A stretch of DNA of 64,000 nt from assembly GCA_905178155.1 (NCBI GenBank), contig CAJINV010000016.1, forward strand, positions 496,001-560,000, in the 5' to 3' direction. This document shows, one piece after another, positions 184 to 62,900 of this stretch (position 1 is the stretch's first letter; the number at the start of each line of letters is the position of its first letter). The stretch comes from Amoebophrya sp. A120. Lineage: Eukaryota > Protista > Dinoflagellata. Under the pieces are notes generated by a model. It was not told the origin of the DNA. It did not search any database and saw only the letters and a list, made by a program, of their open reading frames with translations. The translations under genes were made by a program, and so were the position numbers.

Positions 184-3100
184 TCAGCATCTCCATCGAC
201 TCGTCATACGGGTTCACGGCCGTCGAGACCGCGTGCGGGCTATGAAATGCAAATATGCCTGGGTCTGGAAGGTTGGAACTTGTAGTGCTAGCTTTGCATA
301 CCCAGGAAATCTGTATTGCATAACCAACAAAAGTCGCAGCCTCTTTTGTACATGCAAAGCCGCAGCTTCTCATGCGGGTTTCCTATGAGAAAGCGTTCTG
401 AAAAGTTGTCATGCTGTGTTGCATTCGCAACTGTTGCAATCATCCACATTTTAGCATCACAAGTTTCCGCACCCAGACATATTTGCATTTGATACGGGCC
501 CGGTTGCTGCGCCCCGGGCGGTGCTTTCAACTCCAGATTCATCTGTCGCGGTACGATCCCGCGCTTATTGGTATACGCGTGCTTGATGAACTGTTTTTGC
601 GCGTGCACCATCGCCAGCCCGTTCGGCCCTTCCGGTGCGTTCGGCGGTAAGTAGACCGTGATCCCCTCCATTTCCCCGCAGTAGTGCTCGCCCTCTTTCC
701 CCGGAACTAGGAAGTACCGGTAGGGGTTTAGGACTAACCGCGGGTTCAGATTTTGGATCATCGCCTGGTGCAACTCTTCATCAAATGCAAAAATGTCTGG
801 GTCTGGAAGAATCTGAGACTTGTCATGCACAGTTTGCATGAGCCATGATGTCTGTGATGCATGCCCTAGCATCACAGGTTTATTGAGGGACTCATGATGC
901 CTATTCCGCACGACAAATGCCCTGTCCGCGTAGCAAAAATTAGATTCCTTTTGCTGCTCATGCAACACAAATTTTTTAGACATCCAAATGCAGCATCACA
1001 AGTTGCATTCTTCCAGACCCAGACACTTTTGCATTTGATATTCTTCATCCGACATCAGCGCCTCCTTCACCATGCCCTGGATCAATTTCTCGAAACTCGA
1101 CTGTTTCCTTCGCAACATATTGCGAGGAAAAATCCCCCCTCCCCATAATGGACATTTGTGATGCTGGATTTGTGTACACAAATCGACTTGTCTTGCTAGA
1201 AGGCCAAGAGACGCAGTTGCGGCCTAAATTGTAGACGGTTTGTTATGCTGTTTCCCACTTGCAGTGGCCTCCTGTGATGCTGAAGATGCAAGGTTTTCCC
1301 ACGTCAGCGAGCACTACAGTCCGTGTCCGCATCTTTTGCCTTCTAGCATGACAACATGATTTGTGGAAGCAAATCATGCTACACAAGTCGCCGTTTTAGG
1401 ATGAGGAGGGGGGATCGGGATTTTTCATTTTGATACAACACCAGCGCTCGTCGCAGAAAATCCCGAACGATGGTGATCAACTCGGAACTGGATCGGAGCT
1501 TCACCAAAGCGGTCAACGTCCGTTGTAACAGCTTCGCGTTTGGATTCGCTTCGTCGTTGGCGCAAACTTCCGATTCTATATCAAATGCAGAAGTGTCTGG
1601 GTCTGGAATAAACTTGTGATGCTAAGTGGCGTAGCATGGGGAGGCCACAAGTGCTGGCTCAGCATGACAAATTTCATCTGAGCTACTAGGTGTTGCCTAT
1701 TCTGCATGACAAACTGCGTCTCCGCATGACAGAAAAGCGCGGCTCTTGGGCAACGTGCATGACAGATTTAAGAGTCATGCCAGACAAGCATGACAAACGT
1801 GCATTCTTCCAGACCCAGACATTTTTACATTTGATATTCTAGTTGCTTCTTCAACTCCTTCTTTTTCTTCGCCGCTTCCTTCTTTTTCTCCTGCTCATCG
1901 GAGGTGGTTGTGGAAACGCCAGACGATTTCATCTTCACAGTGGATTCCGTCCCAGATTGCCCCGCGGAGGAGACGTCTTCGTCCATGTTGCACGTGAGAA
2001 AATACTGCGTGGGTTTTCCGCGGTCGAAAAAGATTGTGTCAGGGAAAAGGACCCGATGGACCATCTGGCTCATATGCATTGCAAAAGTATCGCACTCGTA
2101 GTGATCGCAGTTATGCATTACAAATGTAGTTGCTTTAAGGTAAATCCGCATTACAAATTTAATTTGTAATGCTGAGCCAGTTTGTATTGCGATTCATACG
2201 AGTACGATACTTTTGCACAGGATAGTTCATCTTTTCCACCAGCTCGTTTTTTCGGGATGCGCCGGTAGCCTGTAATGGGTCGTGTGGTTTGTGTTGCAAG
2301 ATTGGGATTGCAAGATTTTGGAACTACATTTTGAAGAAGATAAAACTCAAACCAACGTGTCAGTCATGCACATTGAGACACAGAGCGAGAATACCACCAA
2401 TCATGCAGACCAATAAATGATTTTTCACATGAGACAAAATCAAAAAATCATACGTCGTCACTTGCCCCAGCCCTGCTCGCGCCGCTTGGGTCGACAACGG
2501 TTGAGAGTTGAATATCGTACGACTGTCTCCCTCGTTCGTCTTTGTAAAGCGTGTATCAAATGCAAAAATGTCTGGGTGTGGGAGGATGGAGCTTGTCATG
2601 CTAAATCTGAATCATGTAAAAATCTGTGTTGCATGATTACCAAAAGCTGTCCACGTGTGACCTAATCGGGATGCAGTTTTTTATGCAGCAGAATAGGCAT
2701 CATAGAGAGAGAACTAATCACAGAATCCGTCATGCTATGTCCTACATAGCAGACATCATGGGTCATGGAAAACCTGCATGACAAGTCTGGCACTCTTCCA
2801 GACCCAGACATATTTGCAGTTGATAGCGTGTTGACGCCGACGATCACGGATCCCTTCATCTTCATCATCAGCCATTGCAGGTCACGGTATTTCTGTATTG
2901 CAGATAGAAACTTTGCGTAGTTGCGTCGGTTGTTTATTATGCAAGCATAGAATTCTAATTTTGCAACTTATTTGATGCTGGCATGCAAAACCCCAGTTGT
3001 GGAAGTCGAAGTTCTTATGAACGGCATCAACACGAATTAATACCCTTGCCGGCGCAACCTCCTTCTTGACGACGGTCTTGGATGATTTTGCTGGTGACCC

Positions 3101-3521: not shown

Positions 3522-4379
3522 GATGGGGACGAGGGAGTGGTGCTAATGCGGCGGAGGGTTTTGTTCAAACGAGGCTCAGCAAAGAACGGTCGTCATTTTG
3601 GCTTGCACTTTAGTGCTGTACCAATGGGTGAATATCGGCCCGCGTTTCATGTAGTAAGCTCGCGGTACCTACGTAGCCTGAATATGGATCAGAAATGTTT
3701 ACACATAGACGCAGACGAGGACGCCCGGCGTGCCTCTCATTGTGGTTGGCTTTGCCGATAGGCATCGATCACATAAATGGACCTCGATAGCGTGATGATC
3801 ATCAGGAAAGCGACAAAGTAAACGCAGCAACACAAGCTCGCTCGGAGGTACGTACTGACACACTAGCTCAACGTCGACTCTCTGCTAAATGCACCTGGCA
3901 CTCTGCTTTTGAACAATCGATCAAGATGATTGTGTACCATGGTCGACGAGAGCGTCCGAGCCGCCCTGCGTAGAATTCATGTGTGCTCGCTCAAGAAACG
4001 ACTCACTCCTTAAAAAGCTCCCTCAAACAATTTCTCAGCAAAAGATCCAGAACAACGACGACCACACGAAGGCGAAACAACTCCGCTGCAAGCAGATTCG
4101 ACTGAAAGATCACCGCGGGCGGCTAGCTTTAGTACAACCGCGGCCGGATGGCCACGTATGAACGAATGCCGTATGAACGAATAGCGCTAGGCCATTGCCG
4201 CCGAGATGCTGCACGGCGATCACGACAACCTATCCAGCACCAGCTGCAGCGCCACGTCAAAATGCTTTCGCGCAGCGAGCATGTGGCCGAGTGCAACGCT
4301 CGGCAATCAATAACTCCCCTCGCCCACCGAAAAGGGACCGTCTACACCACCGACGGGCGGGCCACAGAGAGACAAGCGA

Positions 4380-5260
4380 GCTGGCCGGCGAAAGGACTAG
4401 GGCCACTCCCGGATCAAAGACAAACAAGACGAGCCCGAAGAGGGCGCCCAAACCAGCGCAAAGGCGGGCGATGAGGGCGGACCCGGCAAACAGCCCGCGG
4501 GCGGGGCGCGCGGGGGCAGCGGGCGCGGGCAAGCAGAAAAAGAAGGCCGGGGGCCGACGCGCGACAGCTTTTTGCCACTTCTCGCGAGACAGTAGTCGGC
4601 ACCCTCGTGCAGGACTGTCTCCCTCGGCCCGCCGGCCAACCGCCGCGGCGGGGCGGGCGCCTGGCGCTCTTTGTCCAGGCATGACGCGCAACGGCGCCCC
4701 GCGTTCTCGAGAACCTCCCGGGGGGGCCAGCCTTCCAATAAACCAGCGCCGCGGGCCCCCGGCGTGCGTCCGGAGCGGAGGACGCTTGGGCGGACGGGGC
4801 GGAAGGAGTTCGGCAATGGGCGCCGAAAGTAATGGGGCGCGCAGGCTAGGCGCCGGACCGCCCTGGTCAAGCGCGCGAGCTGCTCCGGATGTCCCTGGCG
4901 CAGCGTCCCGCCGAGGAAACTTCCTCGATGTACTCCTCTGCCCGGCATTCCCTTCTATGTGGGGGCGCCGGAACCAGTAAGAAGCTCGCTGCGCTTGGCA
5001 TGTGGGAACTCGGGTAGGGGCAGCACCTTCTGCCGGCGGCTGTGTTCGTCCAGCAATAAGGCGGCCACCTGGGGCAGCGCGTTCCGATGGTGGCGCAACT
5101 CTCCGGCCCAGTCACGTCCTTGCCCAACACGAACAAGCCGAAGCCGAGCGCGCAAGCTGCAGCGGCGCGCTCCGCCTGACGCCCATGATTCGGCGGGGAA
5201 AATCGCGAAGCACCTGCACGCGCTCGGTCATCACAGAAATCTTAGTGCGCGATGCGTCCT
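4380..5260. other. GC-rich intergenic island
   Basis: Abrupt rise in G/C runs interspersed with short A/T tracts; only spurious Arg/Ala/Pro/Gly ORFs. Confidence 0.6.
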
Positions 5261-5372
5261 AGCGCCGCTCGGCTCCTTGAACTACAAATGCTCTTGCTCC
5301 GCTGCAAGAGACAAGAATAGGAACACAAATCACCCACACTAAACCTCCAGGCCAATTTCCAGGACGCTTTTC

Positions 5373-8300
5373 CTAGCAGCGAATACTACCACAGGTTAAT
5401 TTTGTTGCATGTGAACCTTGACGTTGAAGATCTTTAAGTCTATTCTCGTCCATCGCTTCCATCTCTCTTGGCTTTTTCAGACGCAGTCTTTCAATCAAGC
5501 TCAGTGGTTCTGCTCGAGAAGTAATTTTAGTTTCCAGACCTTTCAAAACGGCCTTGCTTTCATTTTTCTGTCCGTCTTTTCCAACTTCTCCCGGACTATA
5601 GTTCGGAGCGAATCCTGTCGGATACGACTGCGACAGAGAAACCGGCCCACCAGTCCCCGTTGCCCCACCAAGACCGCTCAACTGACTGTTCCCGTTCAAA
5701 CCGCTGTTTTGGCTGTTGGTCCCCATTTCCTGGCTGACTTCCTTGATCGTCGAGAGCTTCTGTCTCTTCAGCAATGGATCCTGTTCTACTTCATCGTCGT
5801 CCGCAGCATCTTCCGCAAACCCGGTGTCAAGATGTTCACCATCTGCTCCAGATTGTAAAAAACTACCCGAAGAATTCTTCCTCCGCTTCCCGCTGCTGCT
5901 CGTCACTTGTTTCTGTGGCGTGAAAAGACCTAGCGTGCCAACATCTTTTGACCGCGAAGATTGGGCGGAAGATAGCTGCGACGAGGATTGTTGTGACGAA
6001 TCTGATCTTGATGATGTTGTCCCTGCAGTTTGTCCCTTGTAGTTCTGCGATCGTTTGCTTTGCTTCGATTTGTCGTTGTTCTTCCTCTTCCCTCCACTGC
6101 TTGTAGTCCCCCCGTAGAACAGAAATTGCGATTTCTGGGACATTTTTCCAAACGCGATGTTCTTCTTCGAAGCTTGTTGACCGCTGGTTGTTGTACCAGT
6201 TGCGCCGGTACTAGCGCCTGCTGCTGCTCCCGGTTTCTTGTTCCTCTTCCGGGACGAAGAAGCACCAGCAGCACTGTCAACATGCTGCGAGGAAGATAAA
6301 TTCTGGCTTTTCTGGCTGGACACAGAAGTCAAAACCCGGGAGTTCAAATCGTCCCCTTCCTCGTCGCCCGAGATGGACAGATCATCCTCCTCTCCTGACA
6401 AGAAATCAGTTTCCCGAATTTCCGGCTCAGCTTCCTCTTGGTCCTGCTGCAACGCCACAAAACTACTACCCAGCTTATAATTTCCCGCAGCCTGCTCCAT
6501 GTCGACCGTGCGGACTAACACCGACCAGGAAAATTTCGCTTGGCACCTTGGGCACGCGACCGGTAATTCGGTCGGGATCAACGGTAAAACAGGTTGTGGG
6601 GGGTTTTTGTCGCTCCAAGTAGATGCCATTTTTTCCACTTTAGACGAAGAAGACGAACTGCTAGTACCACCGACCACATTAGCTGCTGTCTGTTGCTCTA
6701 CTTTCTGCTGCTCCTGAAGGAAGTGGTTCGCCAAACAGCCAACGTGGAATTGCGTTGCGCAAGAGAGACAAGAGATCAGCAACGGGGCCCGTCGTCCTGG
6801 AAGATTTTTCACCGCTGCAGATGAGGCAGAAGCGGACGAGGAACTGGCACTGCTGCTTGAACTTGTACCAGCAGCGACACTGCTTCCAAGTTCATGTCCT
6901 GGGTTGAGTGGAAGATCACCTCCGGTACTACCAGGACGAGCCGCTGCAGAAAAAAGACTTTTCTGGCACAAACTGCAACTCGTTTCTCCGGCGGCAAATT
7001 GTCTCGATTTCAGCTCTTCCACCTGCTTAAACAGGTAGTTGCAACTCTGCTCCAGGCTCTCAATGTCCCCCTTCGTAATTGCCATGTGCTGCGGGATAAT
7101 TTTCGACGTCACGGGATGTTGAATCACAGGACGACGAGCTCCTGATGTTAACCCATTTCCTATCGCTTCGTCGCCACTCAAACTACCACCGCGTAATGTG
7201 ATTTTCGCCGCGACACGAATCTATCCTGAGTAAAAACGTACCCACACCAGAGTTGTAATGCAAATCTGCATGCTGAAAATGTTTCTCATGCGGAGCTCCA
7301 TGAGAAGCATTTTCTAGTCGTGTTTTGCAATTTGCCATGCTCCAATCAGCATGGTATGCTAGATCTCTGATGCTGCTGAGCTAGCTCAAACAGCACTACA
7401 CTACGAATCCAAATTTGTCATGCAAAACAGCCAAAACTTGTGGATTTGTCTAGCCGATTCCCCATCTTGACTCTGGTGTGGGTACGTTTTTACTCAGGAT
7501 AGAATCGCGTACTTGTTCGTTTGGGTGAATACCTGAGAGCCAGCAGTTGTCATCTTCAAACTGCTTGACGATATGAAAGCAGTACAGTTTTTACTACCTT
7601 CAGTTCTGTCACCAGCATTGTTTTTGTTTTTCTTCTTGTTCATTTCCTTCAGTTGCTTCTGCCTCTCGTCCTCTTCCCGTCGCTTTGCTGCTTCGTCCCG
7701 AATATCGCTGATTTATCCAAAGGAAAAATCCCCCCTCCCCATATCGAAAAGGTATGTTTCCGAAAATTTGCGTTGCTGATTTGAGGTCACAAATCACATT
7801 TGTCTTGCAAGAAGACAAGGGCAGAAGCTTCCGCCCCGTTATGGAAGTGATTTGTCATGCTGTTGGGCCTAAAAGTGGGCCGCTTGTCGTGCTGAATAAC
7901 TAGACCCATACGCCCCTACCTATCCTGGGGATCTGGCCGCAATGCCTCTCTGCAATACAAACCTGATTTGTGTACACAAATCCAGCATCAGAAATTCCGT
8001 TTTGATATGGGGAGGGGGATTTTTCCTTTTGATATGATTTCCTTCAAATTCGCTTCAAATTTCTGCACGTCTTCGTTCAAGGTGGAGCAAGCTTGCATGT
8101 TGTAATTGATGAACTTCTATCAAATGCAAATATGTGGTCTGGGTCTGGAAGAGGACAAGTCTGTCATGCAGGTTTTCCATGATGCATGATGTCTGTGATG
8201 TATGCCCTAGCATCTCAGACTTTTTGAGCCCTTATCGATGCGCATTCCGCATGACAAATGCCCCCTCCGCGTAGCAAAAATTTGACTCCTCTTCCTGCCC

Positions 8301-9337
8301 GCGCAATACAGATTTGTTTAGCATCCAAATCCAGCATCACAAGTTGTACTCTTCCAGACCCAGACACATTTGCACTGCATAACTTCAACGCGGTTTTCTC
8401 ATCTCCCATCGTCCCTAGGTATTTGAGCGCAGCGGCCGCGACTTCCGTAACTCTCGCCTCGTTGGCCAGAAACGGATTGCCGTTCTTGGATGAAGAAGCA
8501 TTTTGGGGGTGCTTCTTGTTCGGTTTTTTACTGTGCGACTTTACAGACGCCGACGCTGCAGTCGCGGCAGCTACGGCCGGCGCTAGTTGTACTGCTCCCG
8601 TAGTTCCCGCATAATTTGTCGTGTTGGTGTCATGATCCCCCAACATGTCACTGTCATTCTCAAAAACGTGTACCCGCAGCGCCATCCGCTTGAAAGGTTC
8701 GCAGTGCAGTAAGAGTTGCGCGACCTGGAGATGCTCGGCATTTGTCAAATACATCCGCCGTCTCCGCCCCGTGGTTTTCGGTTGCAGTTTCCGCAGAATG
8801 TTCTGCAAGGAAGGCACTTGCAGTTCCAGGCTGGTGTTCATCTCAGTTGCGTTGTTGTTCTCCCGGATCCCCGCCTTGACGTTCCGGCTCAAGCTTGGGT
8901 TCTGCCAGGCCCATTCGAACTGCAAAGCCGCGACCTTGTTGGGAAACCCATACACGACAAGCACCATCTTCCAGGGTCGGCCGTCGCCCCGCTTCGTGCG
9001 GTTCGCCCCGCCCTGTTTCTCGCCATTGTGCTGGCGAAGGCGGTTTTTGGGATCGACCGTGAAGCCGACATAGGACTTATCGCAAGAAAAAGCTGCTTCA
9101 CTGTAAACTTGTGATGCAGAAAATGGATCGCAGAAGTGTGTGTCATGCTACAGATGCAAGAGACTGGATTTCTAGCTGCGTTTTCCCTTAGGAACCCCGC
9201 GTGGCAAATTTTCGCTGTCATGTAAAACAAACTTGTGATGCAAAACTTGCAAAATCCTTACAGTGAAACACTTTTTTCGTGCGATAGGACCGTTTTGGGT
9301 GGGGGATGGAGTTCAGCAGGTAGCAGCCGAAGAACAT
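5373..9337 (-). CDS. SLX1: Structure-specific endonuclease subunit SLX1 homolog (GIY-YIG domain, C-terminal RING/PHD-like finger, long low-complexity tail); 5 exons
   Basis: After removing 4 introners the frame reads [17 protein letters not shown]|[59 protein letters not shown], then CSLC...[14 protein letters not shown]...LIP...CPRC...W. I checked frame continuity through all junctions. Confidence 0.9.
7222..7501. mobile_element. TIR introner family D
   Basis: Perfect 32-bp TIR tatcctgagtaaaaacgtacccacaccagagt; TSD gaatc. Confidence 0.95.
7714..8034. mobile_element. TIR introner family B
   Basis: TSD tgatt. Confidence 0.9.
8118..8381. mobile_element. TIR introner family A
   Basis: TSD acttc. 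Confidence 0.9.
9078..9286. mobile_element. TIR introner family E
   Basis: tatcgcaagaaaaa..ttcactgtaa / ttacagtgaa..ttttttcgtgcgata; TSD ggact/ggacc; splits the GIY-YIG motif. Confidence 0.9.
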
Positions 9338-10043
9338 TTTTTTTCATACACGAAGTGCGTTTGAAGGAGGAATTTTTTGGGAAAGCTGTTGAGTCATGTT
9401 ACTTGTGCGTTTTGGCTGGAATAACGGACTGGCTTCTGGAAAAGGTACCTCAAGGAACAGCGACTGACATACTACACAGAAAAAACTGCTTTTACTTCTA
9501 GGACATCTCCACATAGATGGTACCATCGCTCGAAAGTGCTGTAAATTCATGTTTATACAGCACAAAAAACTGACAAGAACAATGAATCGCTGTATCGACC
9601 AGGGAGCATGTTGCACTTGCTTAACCCTAAACCCATCATATTAATTATCAAAGTTCAATCTTCCTACACGGTGTTGAAGGCAAAAAAAAAAAATCATTCT
9701 TTCGCAGAAGGACAACACAACGTAAAAGTTTGCTGTATTCAATTCAAGTTTTGCAGATTCTCAGCATTTTGAAAGTTTTTGTGCTTTTAATAATTTAAAT
9801 TCATTTTTTTCTTCTTGACAGAAGGTGACAAAGCGAAACAAACGTTTTCATTTTGAAAAACTTATACATTTCCACTGTAGTACTAGTCCTACTCATTTCC
9901 AAAACAATGTATGGAGTTTACCACGAAGATGTCGATTCCTTTTCTTGTAAATCCAAAATTTCTTTCATAATGTACGATAAAACGAATCGGAATTTCACGC
10001 AGAGCTTCCAGAGGAGTTGTGCTGAAATTGACTCTGTTCTTTC

Positions 10044-14292: not shown

Positions 14293-14299
14293 TGCAGCA

Positions 14300-16852: not shown

Positions 16853-17937
16853 TCGATTTTTTTCCACTGGAACTGGAAAGGCAAATAGTGCTATCTTCGG
16901 TGGCTTCAACAGAGTTTCTTGCTGGGCCGACCCTCGCTGTGGTCGGCTAGTGGTCGTTGCTTGATGTTCGAGAGCAGCAGCTGCACAGCGTGTTTATTCA
17001 GGACTTCAGCGCCAGCGTTCGATTTTTTGCTATCGTTTGGTATTGGTTCGCTATTTCGTGACGCGACAATAATAAAAATTGAATTTGAAGAGTGAGAGCG
17101 GTTCTGGTTTCAATAAAAGTTAAGTTTTAATAGTTACAGGAGCGCCAGAGTTTTACAGAAAATCTGTGCGCGGCGGAGGGAGACGTCGATCGATCGTATA
17201 TCGTTTTACTTTTTTTCTTGTTTGTTCCTCAAGAAAAACAAGAAGGACAAGTTGTACTGCGCCTGTTTTTTTTGTAGCTGAAGATATGCACTACTAGCTA
17301 CTTCTTGGAAAAGGTCGCCGCTCCTAGGGGAGCAAGTTTAAATCGTTTTTGGTCTGCTTTGCCAGTACCACTACCAGAGGACCAACAATACTATCTTCCT
17401 GCGCGACGCCAGTGAGAGTTTTTAGTTTTTCGCAGTTATACACATCAGAGCAGAAACTACCGAACTTTTGGTCGTGCGTGCGTGGGCGACGAGAGGAGGC
17501 CCGAAACCGAGTCTCAGATGAATGTGAATGATGCATAAGAAAGAAAATTCTTGCAACCGAAGATATCACTATCATGAGGCTACAACTCGAACTTGATGTC
17601 GCAAACCGAACCTTGTGCGACAGACGACTTCAACCGAACCTTGTGTGTCATGTCGTAGACCGAACCTTGCAGACAACTTCAGGCTTGTTTGTTACGGCGA
17701 ACAGGCGCGCAATGAGCGACGACTTCTCGTGCTAGTAATTTATTCCACACATTTGGCGTTCTCCTTTCACATTTGCTATAAGTACCCAGACGAGCAGACC
17801 ATCGCGACGCCTCGGTCCGTTTTTCAGCAGTGGTCCTTGCGTCAGTAAGAGCAGTAGAGATGATCTTTGACTATTCAAGTCAGTCTCCTTCTATGCTGAT
17901 CCAAACAGAACTTCTCCCGTCGAAGATGAGTCACGGT

Positions 17938-28118: not shown

Positions 28119-28769
28119 GGAAGGGAGAGGTGGCACGGACCGTGCTGGTGCTCTTGCAAAAGCATTTTATTTAGGCGCTGCTGTATAGCAGCCGTTGGTG
28201 ACGGCGATTCGCACTTCTGAAGGAGGAGCTGCCGATGTATTTATAAAAAGATCATATGCGTTCATCTTCTACATTATTTATCAATTGCTGATGAAAATAG
28301 GTATCAGCGAGCAAGTCCTCGCTTGCAGCTTCATACACAGATATGCATGAGGACACACTAGCTTTCGAGCTGAAGTACACGATGGCCCCCTGAGGCAGAT
28401 CTTCGTTCTCAAATGATGCGCAGCGCCGCAACCAACAACATGAAAAGGATCAACCAGTAGTCGTGGAAAGGGCCGCCCTAGCCTTACACTTGCACCGAAA
28501 CACGAGAACGACCGAAGCAATACGCGGAACACATGCGCCTTCACCATGACGATGATAGGGCGATCGACGTAACTTGCGAGAGATGACGCACCACGTCCGC
28601 ATGATACTTGCACCCACGCTCTGCGATAGCAGAAAACATCGCCGGGATAGCTATTCCTTTAAGCCTGCACGCCGCACCACGCCCACGCAATCGTTGCGCG
28701 CTGCGACAGCAAAAGGCAACGGTGAGGCAGTTGCTCCGTCATCCACGCACCGTACGTAGGTAGGCAGCG

Positions 28770-49300: not shown

Positions 49301-52300
49301 ACTTGTCATGCTGAGCCAGCACTTGTGGCCTCTTGGTGATACGCCACCCAGCATCACAAGTTTCCAGACCCAGACATTTTTGCATTTGATACTTGCTCCA
49401 ACAAGTCTCGTGGTATATCCGCACCGATTTTCCTATGTAAATACCGGTCCAGACCGTCTTTCTCTAAAGCGGACTTCGGCAAGAGACTCTCCAAATCTAA
49501 TTCCGGCATCTCCTGCCTGCTATCAACTGCAAATGTGTCTGGGTCTGGAAGAGTGCCAGACTTGTCATGCGGGTTTTCCATGACCCATGAGGTCTGGTAT
49601 GTAGGACATAGCATGACAGATTCTGGGATAGTTCCACGATGCCTATTCTGCATGAGAAACTGCGTCTCGATTAGGTCACAAGTGGACAGCTTTTGGTAAT
49701 CACGCAACACAGATTTCTACATGATTCAGATTTGGCATGACAAGTTCCAACCTTCCAGACGCACACATATTTGCAATGCATACCTGCGATGTGTCCGCAA
49801 CATGTCCTCCACCGCGGTTTTTTTGTCCACCACTTGCCTTAACTCCGTATGTCTCGCCGCGATCAACTTGGCCATCTCCTCTCTTTGCCCCTGCAAGTCG
49901 ACCGCGATGGACTCCTATGCATTGCAAAAGCAATATCGTACTCGTAGCGTACTAACTGCAGATATGCATGACAAATCGCCTTCCTAAGCCAAAACAACAT
50001 TACAAATTCCATCTGTCATGCTAACGAAATTTGTGATGCAATTTATACTAGTACGATGCTCCTTTTGCATTGCATAACTCCAGCTGGGATTCCTTCCCTG
50101 GAAGTTGCAGGTCCGGACCCATCATTATTTTTTCCGCCACCTCGTTCACGTTGTGCGCCGCCCCTTATGAGAGCGCACAACTCCCCACCCTCCCCTTCAT
50201 TTGTAATGCAAAATACCGAGTCAACCTCTTGCCTTTCAGCACTTTGCGCATGACAAGTTTTGGACGCTCCAACAGGACTACAATCCATGTCCGGATTTGT
50301 CATGCGGGAGCCACATAGCTGGTGTTGCTTGTGTTGCTGTTCTTGACATACAAATGAGGGGGACGGGGAGTTGTGCACTGTCATACCCCTAGACCGAGGG
50401 AATGGTGCAAGGATTTGGACCGCAACGCCTGCGTGTCGCCCAACTCCCGTTCGACCTCGGTTCGTTGCGCGTTATGCAAGAAAAAAACTGTGTAAGTGTA
50501 ACTTTGTAATGCAAAGCATGCAATAGAGTTACGCCTGTCATGCCAGACAGCCATAAAGTCCTCTTTTCATGTGTGTTTTCCCTTACAAGCCACGCATGAC
50601 AGGTTTTCGCTGTCATGTAGAGCAAATTTGTGATGCTATCAGCCAAGGAAAGTTACATTGACACAGTTTTTTTCTTGGATACGCGTGGAGAAGCGTGTAC
50701 TGCCGGTTTAATTCGTCGATCTCCTCGAGGAGCGCTTTTCTCCGTTCTTCCAAATGCTTCAACTTCAGCGTCATTTCCCGCGCGCGGACATCGTACATCT
50801 CTTCCACCGGTTCGATCTTGGCGCGGACACCAATGTTGGAGAGAACCTGATGAGTTGTGTTTGTAATGCGATTGAAGACAATCACAATGGTCATTGTCAT
50901 GGTGCTAACCGCATGGTAAATTCGCTTCAGATCTTCACACAGCGGGGCATAATGAAAATTCTGAAATCAGTACCTTGTATTTCCGATCTTCCGGCGAGAT
51001 CATGGGCCCGCGCATCGCGTCCAAGTCGTTCGTCTCTTCGTCCATCACGTGCCTGAGTCCAATCAGCCGGTTCGTCTCCATATCCACCGACCGCAGCTCC
51101 TGCCCGGCGTCTTGCAGCATGGTCATGATGTCCAGTCTCGATTCTAATAGTCGCATTTGATTCAACGTTTTTTCCTGGTCGCGGTCACCCAACACCGTCA
51201 CATCCGGCTCGGCAATGCGATTCATCTGGACCAAGCGAATGATGGTGGAAAAATCGTCGAACTTGTCCATCAGAACCTTGTAGCGGTGCCTGGTTTCCTC
51301 CTCCTCTCTCGTCCGGGGGCGGGCGCTGTTGATCATTCGATAGTTGTGCTGTACAAAAAATACAAGTGCCACAAATTTCTAGAAGTGCCATCTTCCAGGT
51401 AACAATGCACTCTGATTTCAACACTTGCAGAACAAAAAAAACAAGCTGAAACATTTTAATACATTCCCCGCAAGTGCCTCGCTGACTGCGCGGTCTGATT
51501 CGCCTTCTCGATGTCCGCTTCTAGCTGCATGATCTGCTGCAACATCCGCCACTTCCACTGCATCAGTTCGCACAGCCTGCACGTCTGTTCCCAAAACGCC
51601 CGTAGGGACTTACACACCTCCTCGATCTGCGGGGCCTGCTCCGCTAAATCTGCTCGTTGCTGCTCGGACAATTTGTCGTACTCGATACAGAAAGAAATCC
51701 CCCTATCCGCCAGCTCCTTTGGATCGTTGTTGTAAGCCGGATTCGTCTATGAAATGCAAAAATGTCTCGGTCTGGAAGATTGCTAGGTTTGTCATGCAGG
51801 TTTTCCATGACCCGCGCGCTCTGGCATGCACGGCCTAGCATGACAGGTTCAGTGAGATCTCTATCATGCCTATCCTGCATGAGAAACTGCCTCCAAACTG
51901 GTTCAAAAGTCGACCTCTTTTGGTAATCACGCAACACAAATTTTTCCACGATCCAGATGTAGCATGACAAGTGACGCTCTTCCAGACCCAGACATATTTG
52001 CAATGCATATCGTCCTCAACAAAGCTGTCATCGTCGCTTCGAGGTTTCGGTCCAAGTAGCTGATGTGGGCGAGCAACGTTTGTCTCCGGATCATCAGCAA
52101 CCTGGCGCGCTATGCTGAGCAAAAACGTCCCCACCCCCTAGTCAAGTTGGTATATCTACAACACAAATCTCCAAGTTTTGGGAGTTGTGCATTACAAGTG
52201 TTCATCTGCAGCGTTGTGCTGCTTAGCAAGGGAAGCCGCATGGGAAAGCCATTTTCTCATTCTGTTTACAGTATTAGAAATGCCAAAACACGATTGGCAA

Positions 52301-52990
52301 TGCCTCTCATGGGCGTGCGCATTACAGATGCTCCTGCCATTGCGCATTTGCATGACAACTCTGGGGTGGCGAGGTTTTTACACAGCATACGCGGGACTCG
52401 ATCGTCTGCCGCCCCATCAGACCCCGCGCGCGGACGTTCACGCCCTCGGATTCGAGCACCGCAACAGGGGAGGGCTCTTCGACCAAATCGTACATTTTCG
52501 CCGAGTCCTGGTCGGGAGACGCGTGTGGACCGCCATAGGCGTCGTCGAAAAAGAGGAAGTTCTTGTCTTTTTTGGAAGAAGATGACAAAGAACTTGGCAC
52601 AACATGCCTTGCCGTACTGCTGCTGGAGCCTCCCTCCTGCAGCCTTGACGATCCGAACTGTGACTCGAAATCGTCCAGATGATCCACCGCATAGAATTTC
52701 TTGGCCGCTGCACCAGTGGTCTCGTCCTTCTGCAGCTCCTTTTGATGCAGACCTGCACTTTCCTTCATGTCCCGGCGGAGATCGGCGGAGAAAAGATCGT
52801 CCGCTTCGCCGGAGAAGCTCATGCCAGGTATCAGATCTTTCACACTGGATTCGATGTCTTTTAATTGTTGGTACAGCTTCGCGTCCTTCGCCCTGCGGTC
52901 ATCGATACTCAGTTCGTGGTTCCCGCTTCGTTTTGAAGCTCCGCCGATATGATCAGGCGGAGCAAAGACGAGGTCTATGGAACCTGCCAT
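43336..52990 (-). CDS. Large multi-exon hypothetical protein with coiled-coil and low-complexity regions
   Basis: ATG 52990 (MAGSIDLVFAPP), coiled-coil exons at 50.7-51.7 kb, a ~2.2 kb exon at 46.3-48.5 kb and a terminal exon to 43336. Introns are a mix of introners and GT-AG type. Could be two genes. Confidence 0.6.
44720..45043. mobile_element. TIR introner family B
   Basis: TSD tggtg. Confidence 0.9.
45650..45945. mobile_element. TIR introner family B
   Basis: TSD aacag/gacag; similar to the 1118 copy. Confidence 0.88.
48535..48797. mobile_element. TIR introner family A (TCT left end)
   Basis: TSD gagcg/gaccg. Confidence 0.82.
48838..49096. mobile_element. TIR introner family A
   Basis: TSD gtggt. 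Confidence 0.9.
49152..49391. mobile_element. TIR introner family A (CAT left end)
   Basis: TSD cttgt/cttgc. Confidence 0.85.
49521..49782. mobile_element. TIR introner family A
   Basis: TSD cctgc, which allows a GT-AG register. Confidence 0.9.
49916..50076. mobile_element. TIR introner family C
   Basis: TSD actcc. Confidence 0.88.
50166..50385. mobile_element. TIR introner family F
   Basis: TSD cccct. Confidence 0.9.
50473..50681. mobile_element. TIR introner family E
   Basis: TSD cgcgt. Confidence 0.88.
51748..52009. mobile_element. TIR introner family A
   Basis: TSD tcgtc. Confidence 0.9.
52111..52389. mobile_element. TIR introner family D
   Basis: TSD cgcgc/cgcgg. Confidence 0.85.
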
Positions 52991-53922: not shown

Positions 53923-56900
53923 TCACAAAAACGTGTACTCCTGGAAGTTGTTTGCGAAATCCAGGTGCTCGTAGTTGTCGATGTTGGGTTTTTGATGCAC
54001 CGGCACGCTGTTTCTTTTCTCGGAGTGGTAGTACACTCTTTCCGGTTGGTTTTTCCGCTCGAAGTCGTCGTCGTGCCACAGATCCTGTTCCGCATAACGG
54101 GTTCGCTTCGACTTGTGATCGTTGTAAAAATCTTGGTCCTCGTCGTTCGAGTCCCCCGGGTGCTGGTTTGCCGCCTCGGAAAAAATGGCGTGACCTTTGA
54201 TACAATTTTTTGTACACGAGTAGTGCATGACATCAAAGTGCTTCCACTTTTAAAGTAGATTTTGCATGACAAAAACCAAATCCGCAGTTGCAAAACAAGT
54301 ATAAAAACAGTTACCGCCCAAAAGTGGTTCCTCGTCTAGCATATCCAAGTACGGATCGTCCCCAAACCCGTCCCAATCGTGGTGGATTTTATGCATTGCA
54401 AAAGCATCCCATCGTGATTGTACTGCATTACAAATTTCTTCAAAACCAAAACGGAGAATGAAACTTGTCATGCAGCTTCCGGTTAGGAAGTAGCTTTGTC
54501 GTGCGTGGCTGCAATCTTCAGTCCGGCTACACTACTTTTGCACAGGATAGATTTCCCCGTGCTGGACCTCGTTTTTCTCTGCTTGTGGGTCGTCTCCCAG
54601 CCCGTCCCACTCCTTCGATTCCCCGTTGTCCTCCGGCCAATCGTAATCCGACCAGTCGTAGAGTTTCTTGCCCTTCTTGTGAAAGTCCCGCTCCGCGTCG
54701 GGATGGTCCGCTGGGTTGTGGACATGTGTTGTACTCTTTTCGCTGTAGTCGTGATGCGGGTCGAGGTGGTGGTTCAGCTCATCGTAGTCGTCAACGTCGA
54801 AATCTTCATGTTCGTCTGTTTTCTCCCCAGCATCATGCTGTTGACCTTTTTCTTCGCTTGTTGACAAGAAATTGTTGTTCTGGTCGTCTTTTGATGATAG
54901 TTTTTCATCATCATCTCCGTTAACACCTTCATTGTCGGTTTGCAAAAACGATTTCGTATTCTCCTTTTTCACGACCTTGTTGATATTACCGGTTTTCTTC
55001 TTGCTCACCGGGTTAATCTTCGGTTTCCCGTCATACACCGGCGTCCCTCCGCCTCCGGGTGGCGGCTCGGAACAAGCGGGGATGGAGGTCGTTGGGGTGT
55101 TTTCATCACGAGATCCACCATCGCCTTCTGCGACCGGTGCATCAGTGCAGAGGGGAACGCCGGGGGTCGTAGCTTCATCTTCACCTTTACCGTCTTCGCT
55201 GTGATCCTTTGGGGCTTCTGGTGGGGAGGTAGCAGATGAAGCAGTGTCATGATCTTCCTTCTCGTCTACTTCTTTCTCCGCTTTAAGCTCGGTCAGGGTT
55301 ACTGAAGGATCGGACTTTTGATGGGTGGTTGTATCTGCTTTCTCAGTCGGCTCTTGTTCCGCGACGTTGTTCACAGTTTTGATCTTGTTCCCGACCTGAA
55401 AGAATTTACGTGCTTGCTTATATTCGCTTCTGTTCGTTTCTCAGTGAAACCAGATCAAGATTGCATGCTGTATGTTCTTCCGTGCGGGTTCGCAGGCAAA
55501 GATTGCAAAAGATACACTCCCCTGAAAACCTCAAAAAAGCGATAGGGCGAAGGGCTCAAATCAAGCATGCCGTCGAGGCTGGCAACCACAAGTATGCCCG
55601 AGGGGGACCGAGGGGGGACCGGGGTCGAGCGACTTTTTTTCCCCCCACCAGCCGCAAAACACGACCTGAGTCTGGTTTCTGAGCGAAAACGGCACTCAAG
55701 CAACCAAAAAAAGTCGCTTTTCACTCAAAATTCCGCAACCCCGAGCGCATTCGGTCTCTTTCGATGGCCAACAACACAGAAAAAAGTCGCTCCCCCTCGG
55801 TCAACCTCGGTCCCCCTCTTCCCCAGTCTCCCGTGCGGTTTCGCGGAAAAAGATTGCAAAAGATGCTTTCCCACAAAGACGTCAAAAAAGCAACAGGGCG
55901 AAGGGCATAAATCAAGCATGCCGTCGGGGCTGGCGTTCGCAAGTATGCTTCAGGGGGACCGAGGGGGGACCGAGGTCGAGCGACTTTTTTTCCTCCCACC
56001 AGCCGCAAAACACGACCTGAGTCTGGTTTCTAAGCGAAAACGGCGCTCAAGCAACCAAAAAAAGTCGCTTTTCACTCAAAATGCCGCAATCCCGAGCGCA
56101 TTAGGTCTCTTCCGATGACCAACAACCTGGAAAAAAGTCGCTCGCCCTCGGTCAACCTCGGTCCCCCTCGTCCCCAGTCTCCCGTGCGGTTTCGTAGAAA
56201 AAGATTGCAAAAGATGCTTTCCCACAAAAACCTCAAAAAAGCAGCAGGGCGAAGCGAATAAATCAAGCATGCCGTCGGGGCTGGCGATCGACAGTATGCT
56301 CGAGGGGGACCGAAGGTTGACCGAGGTCGAGCGACTTTTTTTCCTCCCACTAGCACCAAAACACGACCTGAGTCTGGTTTGTGAGCGAAAACGGCGCCCA
56401 AGCAACCAAAAAAAGTCGCTTTTCACTCAAAACTCCGCAACCCCGAGCGCATTAGGTCTCTTTCGATGGCCAACAACACAGAAAAAAGTCGCTCGCCCTC
56501 GGTCAACCTCGGTCCCCCTCGTCCGCAGTCTCCCGTGCGGTTTCGCAGAAAAAGATTGCAAAAGATGCGTTCCCACAAAAACCTCAAAAAAGCGACAGGG
56601 CGAAGGGCTCAAATCAAGCATGCCGTCGAGGCTGGCGATCGCAAGTATGCCCGAGGGGGACCGAGGGGGGACCGAGGTCGAGCGACTTTTTTTCCTCCCA
56701 CCAGCCGCAAAACACGACCTGAGTCTGGTTTCTGAGCGAAAACGGCAATCAAGCAACCAAAAAAAGTCGCTTTTCACTCAAAATTCCGCAACCCCGAGCG
56801 CATTAGGTCTCTTTCGATGGCCAACAACACAGAAAAAAGTCGCTCGCCCTCGGTCAACCTCGGTCCCCCTCGTCCCCAGTCATCTCCCGTGCGGTTTCGC

Positions 56901-59900
56901 AGAAAAAGATTGCAAAACATGCTTTCCCACAAAAACCTGAAAAAAGCATCAAGGCAAAGGGCTTAGATCAAGCATGCCGTCGGGGCTGGCGATCGCAAGA
57001 ACGCTCGAGGGGGACCGAAGGCTGACCGAGGTCAAGCGACTTTTTTTCCTCCCACCAGCCGCAAAACACGACCTGAGTCTGGTTTCTGAGCGAAAACGGC
57101 GCTCAAGCAACCACAAAAAGTCGCTTTTCACTCAAAATTCCGCAACCCCGAGCGCTGTAGGTCTCTTTCGATGGCCAACAACACAGAAAAAAGTCGCTCG
57201 CCCTCGGTCAACCTCGGTCCCCCTCGTCCCCAGTCTCCCGTGCGGTTTCGCAGAAAAAGATTGCAAAAGATGCTTTGATGAAGAAAATTGAACTATACCT
57301 CCTCAATGCTTTTTTTCCACTCCTTCTTGTTCGTTTTACCGTCCTCAGACTCAGATAACCCAAGAGTATCTACGCTTTCCTTCTTTCCTCCTTCACTGGT
57401 GTGATCCTTGTCGTCGCCGCTCGTGCTTGTTTCTGCGTCCGTTCTTTCCTCACCTGCCTTCTCCGCCTGCTCCGCCGGCGCTGTTTCGCTTTTTTCGTCC
57501 TGAACCGTCGTTACTGTCGGAGTTACTTGCTCACCTTGATCCTGTGCGACATTTTTTTCTCCTTCGGTTGCTGGAGAAGTTGCAGTAGATAAATTTTCGT
57601 CCTCTTTCTGCAGTTTGTTCATCGTCTTCGCCCCGACGACGTCGCTTAGCTTCATAAAATCCGGATTCCCCAGGTATCGGTGCCGAGTCATCTGCGCAGC
57701 TTTTTCCGGATGTTTCGTATCGACAGAGGAAATTGTTCACCGCACACGGAGATGAAGAGCCAGTGTCTCAACTGAAGAACTTGCATAACACCAAGACCCT
57801 CTACCCTTGATCTTGAATCTCATTGATTCTGCATTACAGCTTTCGGTTTTATTTCAAGAGATGAGTTGGCAAGGTTTTTCATCTTCTACGAGTCGTGCAT
57901 AGTGAATCTCCAATGCGTATTTCGACGCAACCTCTTTCATCGCTTTGTCCTCCATTGCGGCCTCCTCCTTTTTCATTTTTTCCGTGTGGTCTTTCGCAAC
58001 CTGATCCAACATCTTGATTCGGATCTCCCACTCCTTGTGTTTCTGCTCTTCCTCGGGCGTCCGCGGCTTGTGATCTTCGTGGAGGTTTGTTTTGTCCTCC
58101 TTTTGGTCATCATGTGCTGATTTCTCTACTACTTCCGACTTACCTGTTTTGCTCTTTCCGTGCAGAGTACTGGTGGTTGCAGCATCTGTTCTTGACTGGT
58201 GCGACGTGGTCATCGTGGATTTTTTCCGTGCGAGTTGTGCCGTTCCTGTTGTCTCCTCTTCCTTCTTTGCATGATCGTTCTTACTGGACGCTGCTACTCC
58301 GCCGCTTAGTTTCTCCTTGTCAACGACGTGCCACTCATCTTTCGAACCTTTTTTATCCTCGACGGAAATAAATGATTCGTCCGCATGCTTGTTGTCGTCC
58401 GCTTGAAGGAACGACGTGCCAGTCGATGTACTGGGGCTGGCTTTGATGTCTTTGTTTTCCTCGCTAGTAGGTCTTGGCTTTTCATGGTCCAAAACATCAT
58501 CGTCGTCCTGGTTTGATTTTTTCCATTTCTCATTTACACCTCCACGTTCACATTTACGCTTAGCGAAGATCATGCACATCAGCACTTAACGAAATATCAA
58601 AATACCTCATCGTTTTGGTGGTCGTACGGCTCATCCACGGAGTTCATCGGGTTTAGGGGGACAGCTCCCGCTGCCGCGGTATGCATTGGAAAACAAGCCG
58701 ATAGGAGTTGTACTGTCTTCGATGGTCGAGTAACCTACTTCTTCGAGGATGCAGCCATATCTTCGAACATTTTCATGCTGATAATTTATCAGCATGGAAC
58801 TGTTTGATAGCCAACTTACACGACAGAACTACCACGGTGAAAAATTCATTCCTACCAGTTGTTATTCCAAAGCATACGATGGCATGGGTGCTGGTATCTC
58901 ATCTATTTGCACAAACCCTCCGGGCGCGGTGTTATGCGAGGGCGAAGGAACGGGGGGTTGGGTGGTGCCCTCCGTGGCCGGCGGTGGCGTTGCCGTGGTG
59001 GCTGGGCACGTGCAATTTTTCAGGACCCCCAGTAGACGCTCTTGGTCGGTGCAATTGTGGTTGCAAGGTATGCATTTTACAAATACGATCGAATCGCCTT
59101 GACGTTTGGAGATTTCTGTTGGTGAAGCTCGCATGATCGCAGAGTAGCTGCTCGTCTGGCGCAACAGTATCAGAAAAAATTTTGGGAGGCTCATATTGCA
59201 GTAGAGTCATTCGCAAGACGCATGACAAACTGAGTTAAAAATTCGCAGCAAATCATCAAGAGAACTCGCCACTCCTATTCGTGGATCTTCCCAAGTCTTG
59301 CTCTTCTTCATCTTCAAATTATCGCGTCACAATCACAAATTATCCAGGGACCACAGATCAATTATATTTGCAATGCGTACAAGGGGTCTGCTGGCAACAC
59401 GGCGGCGCGGTTACGTTTCCGTTAGTTCCGTATTACAATGAAAAATGCCCCCACCCCCGAACTTGGGAGCCTTTGTATTGCAAACCTTTCCAAATGAAAC
59501 ATTCGCCCTCTTGCATCTATCAGCATCACAGATTTCTAATCGCGAATAGCAAAAATTTGCATTGCAAAAGATCCCAGCAAAAGCGGCGCTTGTCATGCAA
59601 GCGATCATGCGATACCCGCCTAGACTCTGCATCAGAGAGATTCGTACCCCTTGCATGCATGACAAAAAGTTTTCATTTGGAAACTTCGCATCGCAAATTT
59701 TTGCAAATTTGAGGGTGGGGGCATTTTTCACTGTGATATCCCGTTCAGCGTCTGCTGGATCTGCGTCCCGTTCGACGGTGGGGACGCTGTGGTCGTCACC
59801 GTACCGGTTTTCGGTGAACCTTCGGGAATGCTCTTGCTCTTACTATTGCTTCCCGCCAGGCCCAACATTTTCTTCAACCCGTTGTAGTTCTCCCGCAGCA

Positions 59901-62900
59901 TTTCGCTCAGCGTGCCCGCTACACCGGAATCGTTCGGTTGTTCTTTCAATTGTCTCCTCGTTTTCTCCACTAATGACATTTTAGCTGTTTTCTTGCCAGA
60001 CGTCACCTCCTTGCTTTCCGAAGATTTCGCGGTTTTGACCGAGAAAAACAAATCCTTAGTACTTCCCTTTTCATCCGCGTCGTGATTGCCTTCGATTTTG
60101 AAGGAAAGAGAGTTTTTCTCTACCTGTTCGGAAGTTGTAATAGTGGATTTTTGAAGTTTCTTCGCCGCTGCTAATTCCGCCTTTTTCGCCTCCAGTTCCT
60201 GCTCCGCTTTTTTCCTCTTCGCTAGCGCCGAAACGGTTCCGGGGGTGGCGACCCCATTGGGGCCTATGGTCTGCGGCACTTCTTCTTCTTCTTCTTTTTC
60301 CGGGGCGTGTTGTTCGTCTTTTTTGTCTTGGTCCGTGTCACTGCTAGAAGAATTTTCTTCTACCTTCGCGCTGGGGGAAGCGGTGCTGTCGCTTGTGGAA
60401 GCGGCGACACCGGGGCTGACGGTGCTCGCTGCTGTATCCTGAGTAAAAACGTACCCACGCCAGAGTTGTAATGGAGATTTGCAAAGACAGGAAGACTTGT
60501 GATGCGCATCCCCATGAGAGCCATTTCCAATCGTGTTTTGGAATTTGTGATGCTGTGAACAGGATGAGCAGATGAATCTGTGATGCGGCTGCACTTGCTA
60601 ACCTGCACTACACTGCAGAGCGCAACTTGTCATGCGTGACTTACAAAACTCCTAGGTTTGTGTTGCAAAATCCCCATCCTGACTTTGGTGTGGGTACGTT
60701 TTTACATAGGATATGCTGAAGGACTGGCACTGGTTACCGCAGAACTCGGACTGACAGTACTAGCAGCTGCATCCGGAGCGGCGCTCGTAGCCGCAGCACT
60801 ACCGGGGCTGATACTGGTCGCTGCTGAGTTACTCGGACTGACGCTACTCGCTGCTGCACTCGCACCAGGACTGACGCTACTCGCTGCTGCACTCGCACCA
60901 GGACTGACGCTACTCGCTGCTGCACTCGCACCAGGACTGACGCTACTCGCTGCTGCATTCACACCACCGGGACTGACACTAGTAGCCGCTGCATTCACAC
61001 CGGGACTGATGCTGCTCGCTGCTGCATTCGCACCACCGGGACTGACGCTACTCGCTGCAGCATCCGGGCTGGCGCTTGTCGCGGCCGAGGCACTGCTACC
61101 GGGGCTGGCACTCGTCGCCTGATCGAAGTTTGAATTCACGATGATGGTCGTGCTGCTGTCGGGCTCCTGCTGTCCAACCGGAACAGCGGTGCTCGCGGTG
61201 GAGGAGCTGGATTCATCCGCTGTTTTCCCCTCATCGCCTGGACCGGTATCAACTCAAAAAGTGTCTGGGTCTGGAAGATTGCAACTTATCATGCTGCTTT
61301 TGGACTCTAAAAAAATTTGTAGTGCATGACCAGCAACAAGAGGGGCACAGCTTATGCTACCCGGACAGGGCATTTCTCATGCAGAAGGTGCACCACGAAG
61401 CCCTCTACAAGTCTGCGATGCTAGGTCATGCATTAAAGGCATCGTGGGTCATGAGAAATATGCATGACAAATCTTGCATTCGTCCAGACCCAGACATTTT
61501 TGCATTTGATAATCGGTCCCGACAGCCGACTGGTCTTCATTTTTTCCGTCGGCCGCACTCCCGTGCCACTTTCCATCGTGAACAACTGCGTTACTGTTGC
61601 TCGCGGGAGTTGAAGGAGACGTTGACTGCTGCTGCTGCGCAGTAGAAGAAGCGCCGGTACTACCGGTTGCAGTATTGCTACTCTCATTCGGAATAGACGT
61701 GGCAGGTGCTGCACCGTTAGGAGCGTTAGTCTGGCCTGCCGTTGCTCCTGTACTAGCTGCGTTTTCCTCTGCCGTCGTACCGTCGTCTTCATCTCCCGAG
61801 GTTGTACTACTGCTTGTGGAAAACGTCAGTGTCTTCGCGGTTTTCACCTTCGAAGATGCCCCCTCGTCCTGCGAGGAAGTACTACTGCTAGATGCGACGT
61901 CAGCATCAGAAGTTCTCTTCGTCGCCAGGGCTGGTTCCGCAGCGTCCGATCCGTCCGTGGTGAGGTCGACCTTGAGGAATTTTGACTGCAGGGAGTTTTT
62001 TCCGTGGATGTTTTCCTGCATTTTCTTCTCCAAAAATTCCTTCTCCTTCTCCACCTCGTCGTTCTTGTAGTTGTGCTGGATCGCCTCTTTCTGGTTTTCA
62101 TCTTTATTCTCCTCGACTTCTTCGTCCAAACCGATTTTCATGTGCTTTCTCTGCTGCATCTTAATCTGCTCGATCTCCCGCTCCGCTTCCCTTTTTGAGG
62201 CCTCGTTTTTCTTCCGGATCATGGTCTTTATGTCTTCTGTATGCACAGCAAACGTAGAATCGCAAAGTCTGGCGCATGAATTGCAATAGTACAAAGTTTT
62301 TCAAAATCGCAAATTGGAATACAAGCGACCGACCACAGTGCAGATAGTTTTCTTGTCTCAATATGCAACATTGCAATTCGCACGGCTTTATACGATTATT
62401 TTCCACCCGGCGCATACTCTTCCTTCTTTGCAAATGTCGTTTTCCTCTTCTCCGCCTGTTTCTTCCGGATCATGTCCAAATCTTTCTTCACCAACTGCTC
62501 CGGGGTCAGGTTTATCAACTGTAAAAATGTCTGGGTCTGGAAGAGTGTTAAACCTGTCATGCAGGTTTTCCATGACCCATGAGGTCTGGAATGCGGGACC
62601 TAGCATGACAGAGTCTGTGAGGTCTCTGCTATGCCTATCCTGCATGAGAAACTCCCTCCCAACTTGGTCGAAAGTGAACAGCATTTGGCCCTCATGCAAC
62701 ACAGATTTTCGCATTATTCGGATTTAGCATGACAACTTGCAATCTTCCAGACCCAGACATTTTTGCAATCCATAAGGTTTTCCTTCTTCTTAAACGCGCC
62801 CGGCCGTTCGTCTTCGGGTACATCCCCGGAGATCCCCTCTGAGATCTCGCTTGGCGTGTACGCGTGCATGTCGCCGGTTATTTGCTGCATCATGGGCGGG

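Follow-up and report, generated by a model that had tools for sequence, protein, structure and literature searches.

A likely fixed offset between transposon ends and intron borders in the introners of Amoebophrya sp. A120

How can coding exons be filled with transposon-like insertions and still be read, when these insertions lack GT-AG borders? The question is raised by a stretch of 64,000 nucleotides from Amoebophrya sp. A120 (GenBank assembly GCA_905178155.1, contig CAJINV010000016.1, positions 496,001 to 560,000 of the forward strand), hereafter the window. An initial annotation, made from the sequence alone, had noticed in it about 57 elements of 150-330 bp, roughly 23% of the window, with terminal inverted repeats (TIRs) and 5-bp target-site duplications (TSDs). 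The present analysis bears out this description, with 61 elements of 152-330 bp and 15,600 bp in total (24.4% of the window). Database proteins and RNA-like contigs indicate that the intron is likely N-TAT...ATA-NNNN on the sense strand, i.e., that it begins 1 nt before the element and ends 4 nt after it. Overall, we consider it rather probable that these are non-autonomous TIR introners of A120, removed from RNA. The cut is likely made at a fixed offset, and the likely agent is a remodelled spliceosome in which G at +1 and the final AG are no longer read. About 65% of A120 introns are reported to be non-canonical, with borders called "unknown" and sites "variable" relative to the hairpin (Farhat 2021, PMC7789003), and the splicing mechanism is listed as open both there and in a 2024 review (PMC11282704).

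The elements and the known introner system

A scored search for the form N5-TAT..TIR..ATA-N5 yielded 60 candidates in the window, and 0 and 2 weak matches in two dinucleotide shuffles used as controls. The final set of 61 was obtained by adding three degenerate elements found through the mapping of database proteins (31980-32145, d1; 32196-32410, d2; 62240-62416, d3) and by excluding from the counts two weak candidates located outside long open reading frames (ORFs):
9554-9792, no strand assigned: weak candidate, TSD copies matching at 3/5 positions
30202-30510, no strand assigned: weak candidate, TSD 5/5, poor inverted repeat

The two TSD copies match at 5/5 positions in 43 of the 61 elements, at 4/5 in 12, at 3/5 in four, at 2/5 in one and at 0/5 in one. 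Of 41 elements picked solely for their inverted repeat, 32 are flanked by a perfect duplication of 5 bp, compared to 0-5 for duplications of 2-4 or 6-10 bp. An assumption-free inverted-repeat scan found TAT...ATA ends in 32 of the 36 stems flanked by a perfect 5-bp repeat and none in three shuffles. The termini consist of TAT, seven variable bases and AAA (TAT in 117-119 of 120 termini, A at positions 11-13 in 110-113). Among the 60 candidates there are eight families, with 26, 8, 4, 4, 3, 3, 2 and 2 members, besides eight singletons; both orientations are present in the six larger of the eight multi-member families, and the closest pair is 91% identical. No transposase family was found with Pfam in 33 exon-level ORFs (of the 209 ORFs of the window). 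By their TIRs, fixed-length TSD, small size and lack of a transposase, these elements are miniature inverted-repeat transposable elements (MITEs), i.e., non-autonomous TIR DNA transposons. An unpaired right-hand end at position 183 (window 1-183) is probably that of another element cut by the window edge.

All elements had been said to interrupt ORFs. This holds for 60 of the 61 (56 in ORFs of at least 140 aa and four more inside the protein P0001); the remaining one, 2554-2825, lies between short exons. Nearly all lie within coding exons; introns and spacers contain almost none.

The initial annotation had pointed to the introners of Amoebophrya as a parallel. It had the right system, yet this is no analogy: since identical proteins (P0001 and P0045) are labelled A120 and the end motif matches that of Farhat 2021, these are the published elements themselves, and the system is already known. 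As in PMC7789003, an inverted repeat joins both intron ends and starts with TAT, seven variable bases and at least three A, with a direct repeat at the boundary, non-canonical ends, removal from RNA and repeated families. That paper also reports a mean size of about 240 nt and many families, and inverted and direct repeats in 15% of the canonical A120 introns. The difference is that, in its available text, splice positions are variable and direct repeats have 3-5 nt, whereas here the duplication is always 5 bp and a single register accounts for the informative junctions. In 21 of the 58 A120 rows of another source, the families are classed as TIR DNA without a known superfamily, the mechanism calls are mixed and the TSDs have lengths of 2-5 (Gozashti et al. 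2025, PMC12130899). TIR-DNA introners of other organisms, as described in that source and in PMC11282704, are likewise non-autonomous TIR elements with a TSD that form an intron upon insertion; however, they usually carry or co-opt GT/GC and AG, whereas neither end is fixed in the elements of the window.

Removal from RNA and position of the intron borders

The restored genes all have the same orientation, on the minus strand. When each element is removed together with 5 nt, ORFs of 600-1950 aa are restored and 52 of 60 junctions fall within long ORFs of that strand, compared to 21-27 for the other two frame classes; removal with 2 or 8 nt, which belongs to the same frame class, gives 52 and 49. 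Three database proteins cover 29 elements: P0001 (1114 aa, gene of a major facilitator superfamily (MFS) transporter, 22 elements), P0045 (SLX1, four) and the unnamed P0044 (three). P0001 and P0045 are 100% identical to the window exons and labelled Amoebophrya sp. A120. All 29 covered elements are lost exactly as element plus 5 nt, and P0001 additionally lacks five GT-AG introns. The frame restoration that had been noticed earlier at the four SLX1 junctions and at a series of MFS junctions thus extends to all four and to all 22 elements of these genes; at FAB1, the window ORFs give an open frame at two junctions of the FAB1-like region, which has a FYVE match. The earlier wording, removal of the element plus one TSD copy, is right as regards the frame but not indifferent as regards the copy: at 39952-40256, keeping the downstream copy creates an in-frame stop.

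A set of contigs, X3, was classed as RNA from a software guess and from the GT-AG introns that they lack. Its record 10 spans eight junctions of the MFS gene in 1247 nt and corresponds exactly to the window minus each element and 5 nt. Record 11, which belongs to the region of the two elements at 44720-45945, lacks element 43 (in our numbering) with 5 nt, and 261 nt more that correspond to two GT-AG introns (146 + 115); since these are also missing, X3 can be taken as spliced RNA. The RNA-level removal without GT-AG and the MITE-like origin advanced by the initial annotation are therefore supported by X3 and P0001. A reading of the host genes as dead, with the elements as ordinary MITE insertions, would be favoured by the lack of GT-AG and by nothing else; given the long ORFs restored, the spliced RNA-like contigs and the 29 of 29 junctions in database proteins, we regard it as almost certainly wrong, and for the MFS gene the spliced contigs refute untranscribed pseudogenes.

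The internal eliminated sequences (IESs) of ciliates are also transposon-derived, interrupt ORFs and are precisely removed, but from DNA. A similar precise excision in a somatic or stage-specific nucleus, which had been put forward as one option, would agree with the TA-containing ends and the precise loss. The elements of the window nevertheless stay in the DNA: contigs of the DNA set X1 cross element borders at a depth of 40-49, as element-free DNA does, and one of them carries four unbroken elements at a depth of 43.9 compared to 43.5 for an element-free contig. These data come from a single set of unspecified life stage, from which the window itself may stem, and rare forms do not show in contigs. 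Moreover, the joined contigs also lack GT-AG introns, and the register described below follows the direction of transcription, which would not be expected of a symmetric DNA end. DNA-level excision is therefore unlikely, and an IES-like system appears very improbable.

A separate observation concerns 38168-38255, an apparently one-armed piece of 87 nt from the main family, kept in abundant RNA of another locus; X3 and X9 share a loose end at 38255. Its retention might fit a need for both element ends.

If the two copies of a TSD are unequal, the number of upstream-copy bases in the product can be read off; we call this number the register. The junctions concerned are:
9078-9286, minus strand: element 10, TSD differing at position 1; Arg in P0045, at least 1 nt of the upstream copy kept
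31454-31761, minus strand: element 24, TSD differing at position 5; Val in P0001, at most 4 nt kept
31980-32145, minus strand: degenerate element d1, TSD 2/5; at least 4 nt required
32196-32410, minus strand: degenerate element d2, TSD 0/5, TAT and ATA intact; at least 4 nt required, from annotation only
33617-33884, minus strand: element 26, TSD differing at position 5; X3 piece starting at 33886 and not 33885, at most 4 nt kept
39952-40256, minus strand: element 40, TSD 3/5; in-frame stop in registers 0-1, Tyr in P0001, at least 2 nt kept
40673-40955, minus strand: element 42, TSD differing at position 4; Lys in P0001, at least 4 nt kept, putative intron 40669-40956
61247-61511, minus strand: element 59, TSD differing at position 4; Asp in P0044, at least 4 nt kept

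Eight of the 29 covered junctions are informative (elements 10, 24, 40, 42, 59, d1, d2 and d3, the last one requiring at least 1 nt). Register 4 fits all eight, register 5 seven of them, and registers 0-3 one to four. Register 4 is thus the only single register common to all eight junctions and the X3 contig, and is likely the one used. Elements 24 and 42, which belong to the same family and have the same orientation, together bracket it exactly. The Arg at element 10 and the Asp at element 59 had been predicted before they were found in P0045 and P0044, and the stop at element 40 rules out registers 0-1 independently of any annotation.

Alternatively, the cut could slide within the duplication or follow the orientation of the element (register 4 one way and 1 the other). 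The sites reported as "variable", 1-5 nt from the hairpin (PMC7789003), and the mixed annotated intron ends (PMC12130899) would agree with this, as would the possibility of AG in some register in 37 of 58 elements (49% expected, p 0.025); the informative copies of the largest family, 26 and 59, have opposite orientations and, alone, are compatible with an orientation rule. However, none of the informative junctions calls for a register below 4, and register 4 is the outcome at all five that can discriminate it from register 1, its mirror image (1 in 32 under 50:50), in addition to the exact bracketing by elements 24 and 42. We hold a sliding or orientation-dependent cut to be improbable.

Several points weigh against a fixed register 4. 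The exclusion of register 5 is carried by two junctions (elements 24 and 26), and for seven of the eight informative residues the source is a gene annotation or an unnamed protein. X1, X3 and the annotation may share their origin with the window assembly. Registers were read from contigs and proteins rather than from raw reads, so that molecules could have mixed registers, and the RNA status of X3 has the basis given above. In the sets X1 and X7 the joints listed were those of other element copies, and X9 had no coverage of the window exons. Aligners may also slide junctions towards GT/CT and AG/AC. All nine top A120 motifs of Table S4 in PMC7789003 have T at +2, as predicted by register 4 and not by registers 0 or 5, but this T may stem from such sliding, and we rejected the table as independent proof. 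Lastly, in the available part of PMC12130899, AG or AC is annotated at the 3′ end of 42-50% of the copies in large A120 families, more than expected from register 4. The nine top motifs of a second strain, A25, in the same Table S4 all begin with TT and are unconstrained at the 3′ end; they would be compatible with the same geometry, with U at +2.

The TSD had been proposed as part of the recognised signal, yet elements with TSD matches of 2/5 and 0/5 are still lost from P0001 as element plus 5 nt. The removal machinery probably does not read the TSD: since d2, with a 0/5 match and no terminal stem in its predicted fold, fits the spacing, the distance from the terminus rather than the repeat seems to be read. 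The proposed sequence of events would start with a transposase creating the 5-bp duplication at insertion. The machinery would then locate the TAT-N7-AAA terminus at each end in the transcript and measure 1 and 4 nt, a step that we propose with good confidence. Since 1 + 4 = 5, every insertion would be healed exactly, in either orientation and at any target sequence, and the TSD would be free to decay afterwards. The intron would always carry N-U-A-U at +1 to +4 and so retain two bases of a spliceosomal donor, U+2 and A+3; towards its 3′ end it would have a U-run near -19 to -15 and, as candidate branch nucleotide, the A at -7. The chances that this last step is spliceosomal are about even.

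The 1/4-nt border rule was not found in the literature searched, which left outside figures, subscription papers and part of the supplements; the fixed register is likely a new and directly testable detail. If true, N-TAT...ATA-NNNN would reduce what looks like an unlimited range of splice sites to a single code, explain how these transposons can fill exons harmlessly, correct annotated intron borders, define precisely the intron ends to be used in lariat, circle and minigene tests, and permit direct comparison with the code of Euglena.

Terminal signals and candidate catalysts

The initial annotation had found a GT-AG register only for 49521-49782 and GC-AG only for 39589-39850, which we confirm among 58 elements. 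The GT-AG of 49521-49782 arises in register 4, in which it is the only one of 61; the elements do not have the GT(GC)...AG ends of U2-type introns. In register 4, T at +2, A at +3 and A at -7 are present in 61/61 elements, an invariance partly due to selection of the elements but also found in full in the three recovered from proteins, while +1 and the final four positions vary freely. A U-run lies near -19 to -15 from the intron end, and the invariant A at -7 is a candidate branch nucleotide. No change at +2 or +3 was seen among the 61 elements; the three changes at -5 (779-1040, 26476-26746 and 49152-49391) are all A to G and retain pairing with U+2, a number too small for a test. G at TSD position 1 as an ATA-G acceptor was rejected (20/58, p 0.30; register excluded at five junctions).

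U at +2 is nearly invariant in both types of spliceosome. The U+2 and A+3 of the elements resemble a spliceosomal donor stripped of its G+1, a likeness that would fit the reported loss of U1: U2, U4, U5, U6 and 83 of 89 spliceosome proteins are reported from A120, and U1 was not found (PMC7789003). A remodelled spliceosome is, on this basis, the predicted catalyst to which we give about one chance in two. The points against it are the lack of G+1, the AG at -2/-1 in only 8/61 (p 0.14), the first and last intron bases that follow no pairing rule, and a candidate branch A unusually close to the end. The adjoining GT-AG introns, moreover, do not share the -7 A rule:
31817-31920, 32494-32643, 33381-33562, 34191-34319, 38981-39156, 44278-44423, 44570-44684: GT-AG introns in the same genes

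These GT-AG introns have A-rich acceptor regions without a pyrimidine tract; two of them start with GTAT and may be old introners. An Rfam scan of the window gave no match.

With the same offset, the elements could instead be released, as a circle or a linear RNA, by a spliceosome-independent endonuclease and ligase acting beside the terminal hairpin, a route already proposed for the nonconventional introns of euglenids. In 51 of 61 introns the predicted fold contains eight or more of the first 15 TIR pairs, and the ends have neither a G+1 nor an AG signal. According to the text available (Nomura et al. 2025, PMC12501133), the nonconventional introns of Euglena also lack GT-AG, coexist with GT-AG introns, have a paired terminal motif flanked by spacers of constant but unequal length (3 nt and 5 nt, the longer at the 3′ side), are reported as circles and have a proposed MITE origin. 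Nevertheless, the stem is not visible as a selected RNA feature: G-U and A-C mismatches are equally frequent on the sense strand (60:64), with no signal at 10, 15, 20 or 30 pairs, which weighs against this alternative and does not bear out, at the RNA level, the recognition of TIR pairing proposed in the initial annotation. In addition, d2 fits the spacing without a predicted terminal stem, TIR positions 4-10 pair in 51-82% whereas TAT pairs in 95-98%, and the reported absence of U1, in a genome where 35% of introns are GT-AG, points to a changed spliceosome (PMC7789003). A hairpin-guided, Euglena-like nuclease/ligase is thus a tentative second candidate as catalyst, and the full alternative of an endonuclease and ligase beside the hairpin seems somewhat unlikely. 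The window elements also lack the euglenid signature itself: the motif N3-CDG...CHG-N5-6 with spacers of 3 and 5-6 nt and a purine at the exon start (PMC12501133) contrasts with TAT/ATA, spacers of 1 and 4 nt and an exon start without a purine bias (30/58), and the two lineages are unrelated.

Phase 1 is rare in register 4: 4 of the 60 elements with a frame assigned by hand (p 1.5e-6) and 2 of the 29 protein-verified elements (p 0.001). The favoured phases put the third codon position beside the junction. A symmetric target-site matrix was rejected as the cause (27-32% expected compared to 7% seen). An apparent excess of synonymous TSD mismatches, a separate matter, was dropped, its hand estimate being weak (about 11/18 compared to 40% expected). 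Neither an intron phase bias nor a branch point was found in the main text of PMC7789003. One can tentatively imagine a ruler-type system, U1-less or non-spliceosomal, that reads only the TAT...ATA terminus of a transposon and places its cuts at distances of 1 and 4 nt from it, so that an insertion with a 5-bp TSD, in either orientation, would at once be a seamless intron; this joint proposal, which we think has perhaps a third of the chances, includes convergence with the asymmetric-spacer code of Euglena, a geometry shared with A25 and a lack of phase 1 reflecting a joining step in which a wobble base must adjoin the cut.

Host genes and other features of the window

Pfam identified GIY-YIG/SLX1_C, FYVE, MFS_2 and UDPGT in the 33 exon-level ORFs. 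The elements are distributed as follows:
241-2825, minus strand: unnamed gene with six elements from the scored search (241-494, 779-1040, 1118-1435, 1579-1836, 2073-2224, 2554-2825); removal of the first five gives one ORF of 346 aa
5373-9337, minus strand: SLX1-like gene (GIY-YIG, Pfam) with four elements (7222-7501, 7714-8034, 8118-8381, 9078-9286), all four removed in P0045
12517-13181, minus strand: two elements (12517-12838, 12903-13181); ORF of 619 aa after removal
18083-26746, minus strand: FAB1-like region with eight elements (18083-18343, 18578-18838, 20196-20416, 20656-20893, 25554-25706, 25775-26025, 26115-26366, 26476-26746); ORFs of 1952 and 784 aa after removal
31024-40983, minus strand: MFS_2 transporter gene (Pfam, P0001) with five GT-AG introns and 22 elements (31100-31373, 31454-31761, 31980-32145, 32196-32410, 32868-33197, 33617-33884, 34450-34709, 34796-35047, 35273-35554, 35968-36293, 36352-36634, 36732-36992, 37071-37336, 37369-37652, 37836-38080, 38169-38430, 38482-38691, 39364-39537, 39589-39850, 39952-40256, 40358-40608, 40673-40955)
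44720-45945, minus strand: two elements (44720-45043, 45650-45945) neighbouring the GT-AG introns 44278-44423 and 44570-44684
48535-52389, minus strand: nine elements (48535-48797, 48838-49096, 49152-49391, 49521-49782, 49916-50076, 50166-50385, 50473-50681, 51748-52009, 52111-52389)
54390-54549, minus strand: single element in an ORF of 341 aa
58680-62774, minus strand: seven elements (58680-58876, 59069-59379, 59431-59738, 60435-60713, 61247-61511, 62240-62416 (d3), 62513-62774), the last three covered by P0044

A protein search with the exon at 46207-48534 gave no match within the length range searched. P0044 lacks 229 nt, with a frame change, within 60835-61062; this gap was rejected as an element because it falls in a coding tandem repeat of 33 bp, and is probably a collapsed assembly. 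Two GC-rich regions (59-63%), 4133-5241 and 28739-30067, are element-free and have overlapping ORFs on both strands, of which the two scanned gave no Pfam match. An element-free ORF of 705 aa on the minus strand (14876-16993) has a weak match to UDP-glucuronosyl/glucosyl transferases. Finally, 55476-57276 is a tandem array of 5.1 copies of a 351-bp unit (91% matches) with internal inverted repeats.

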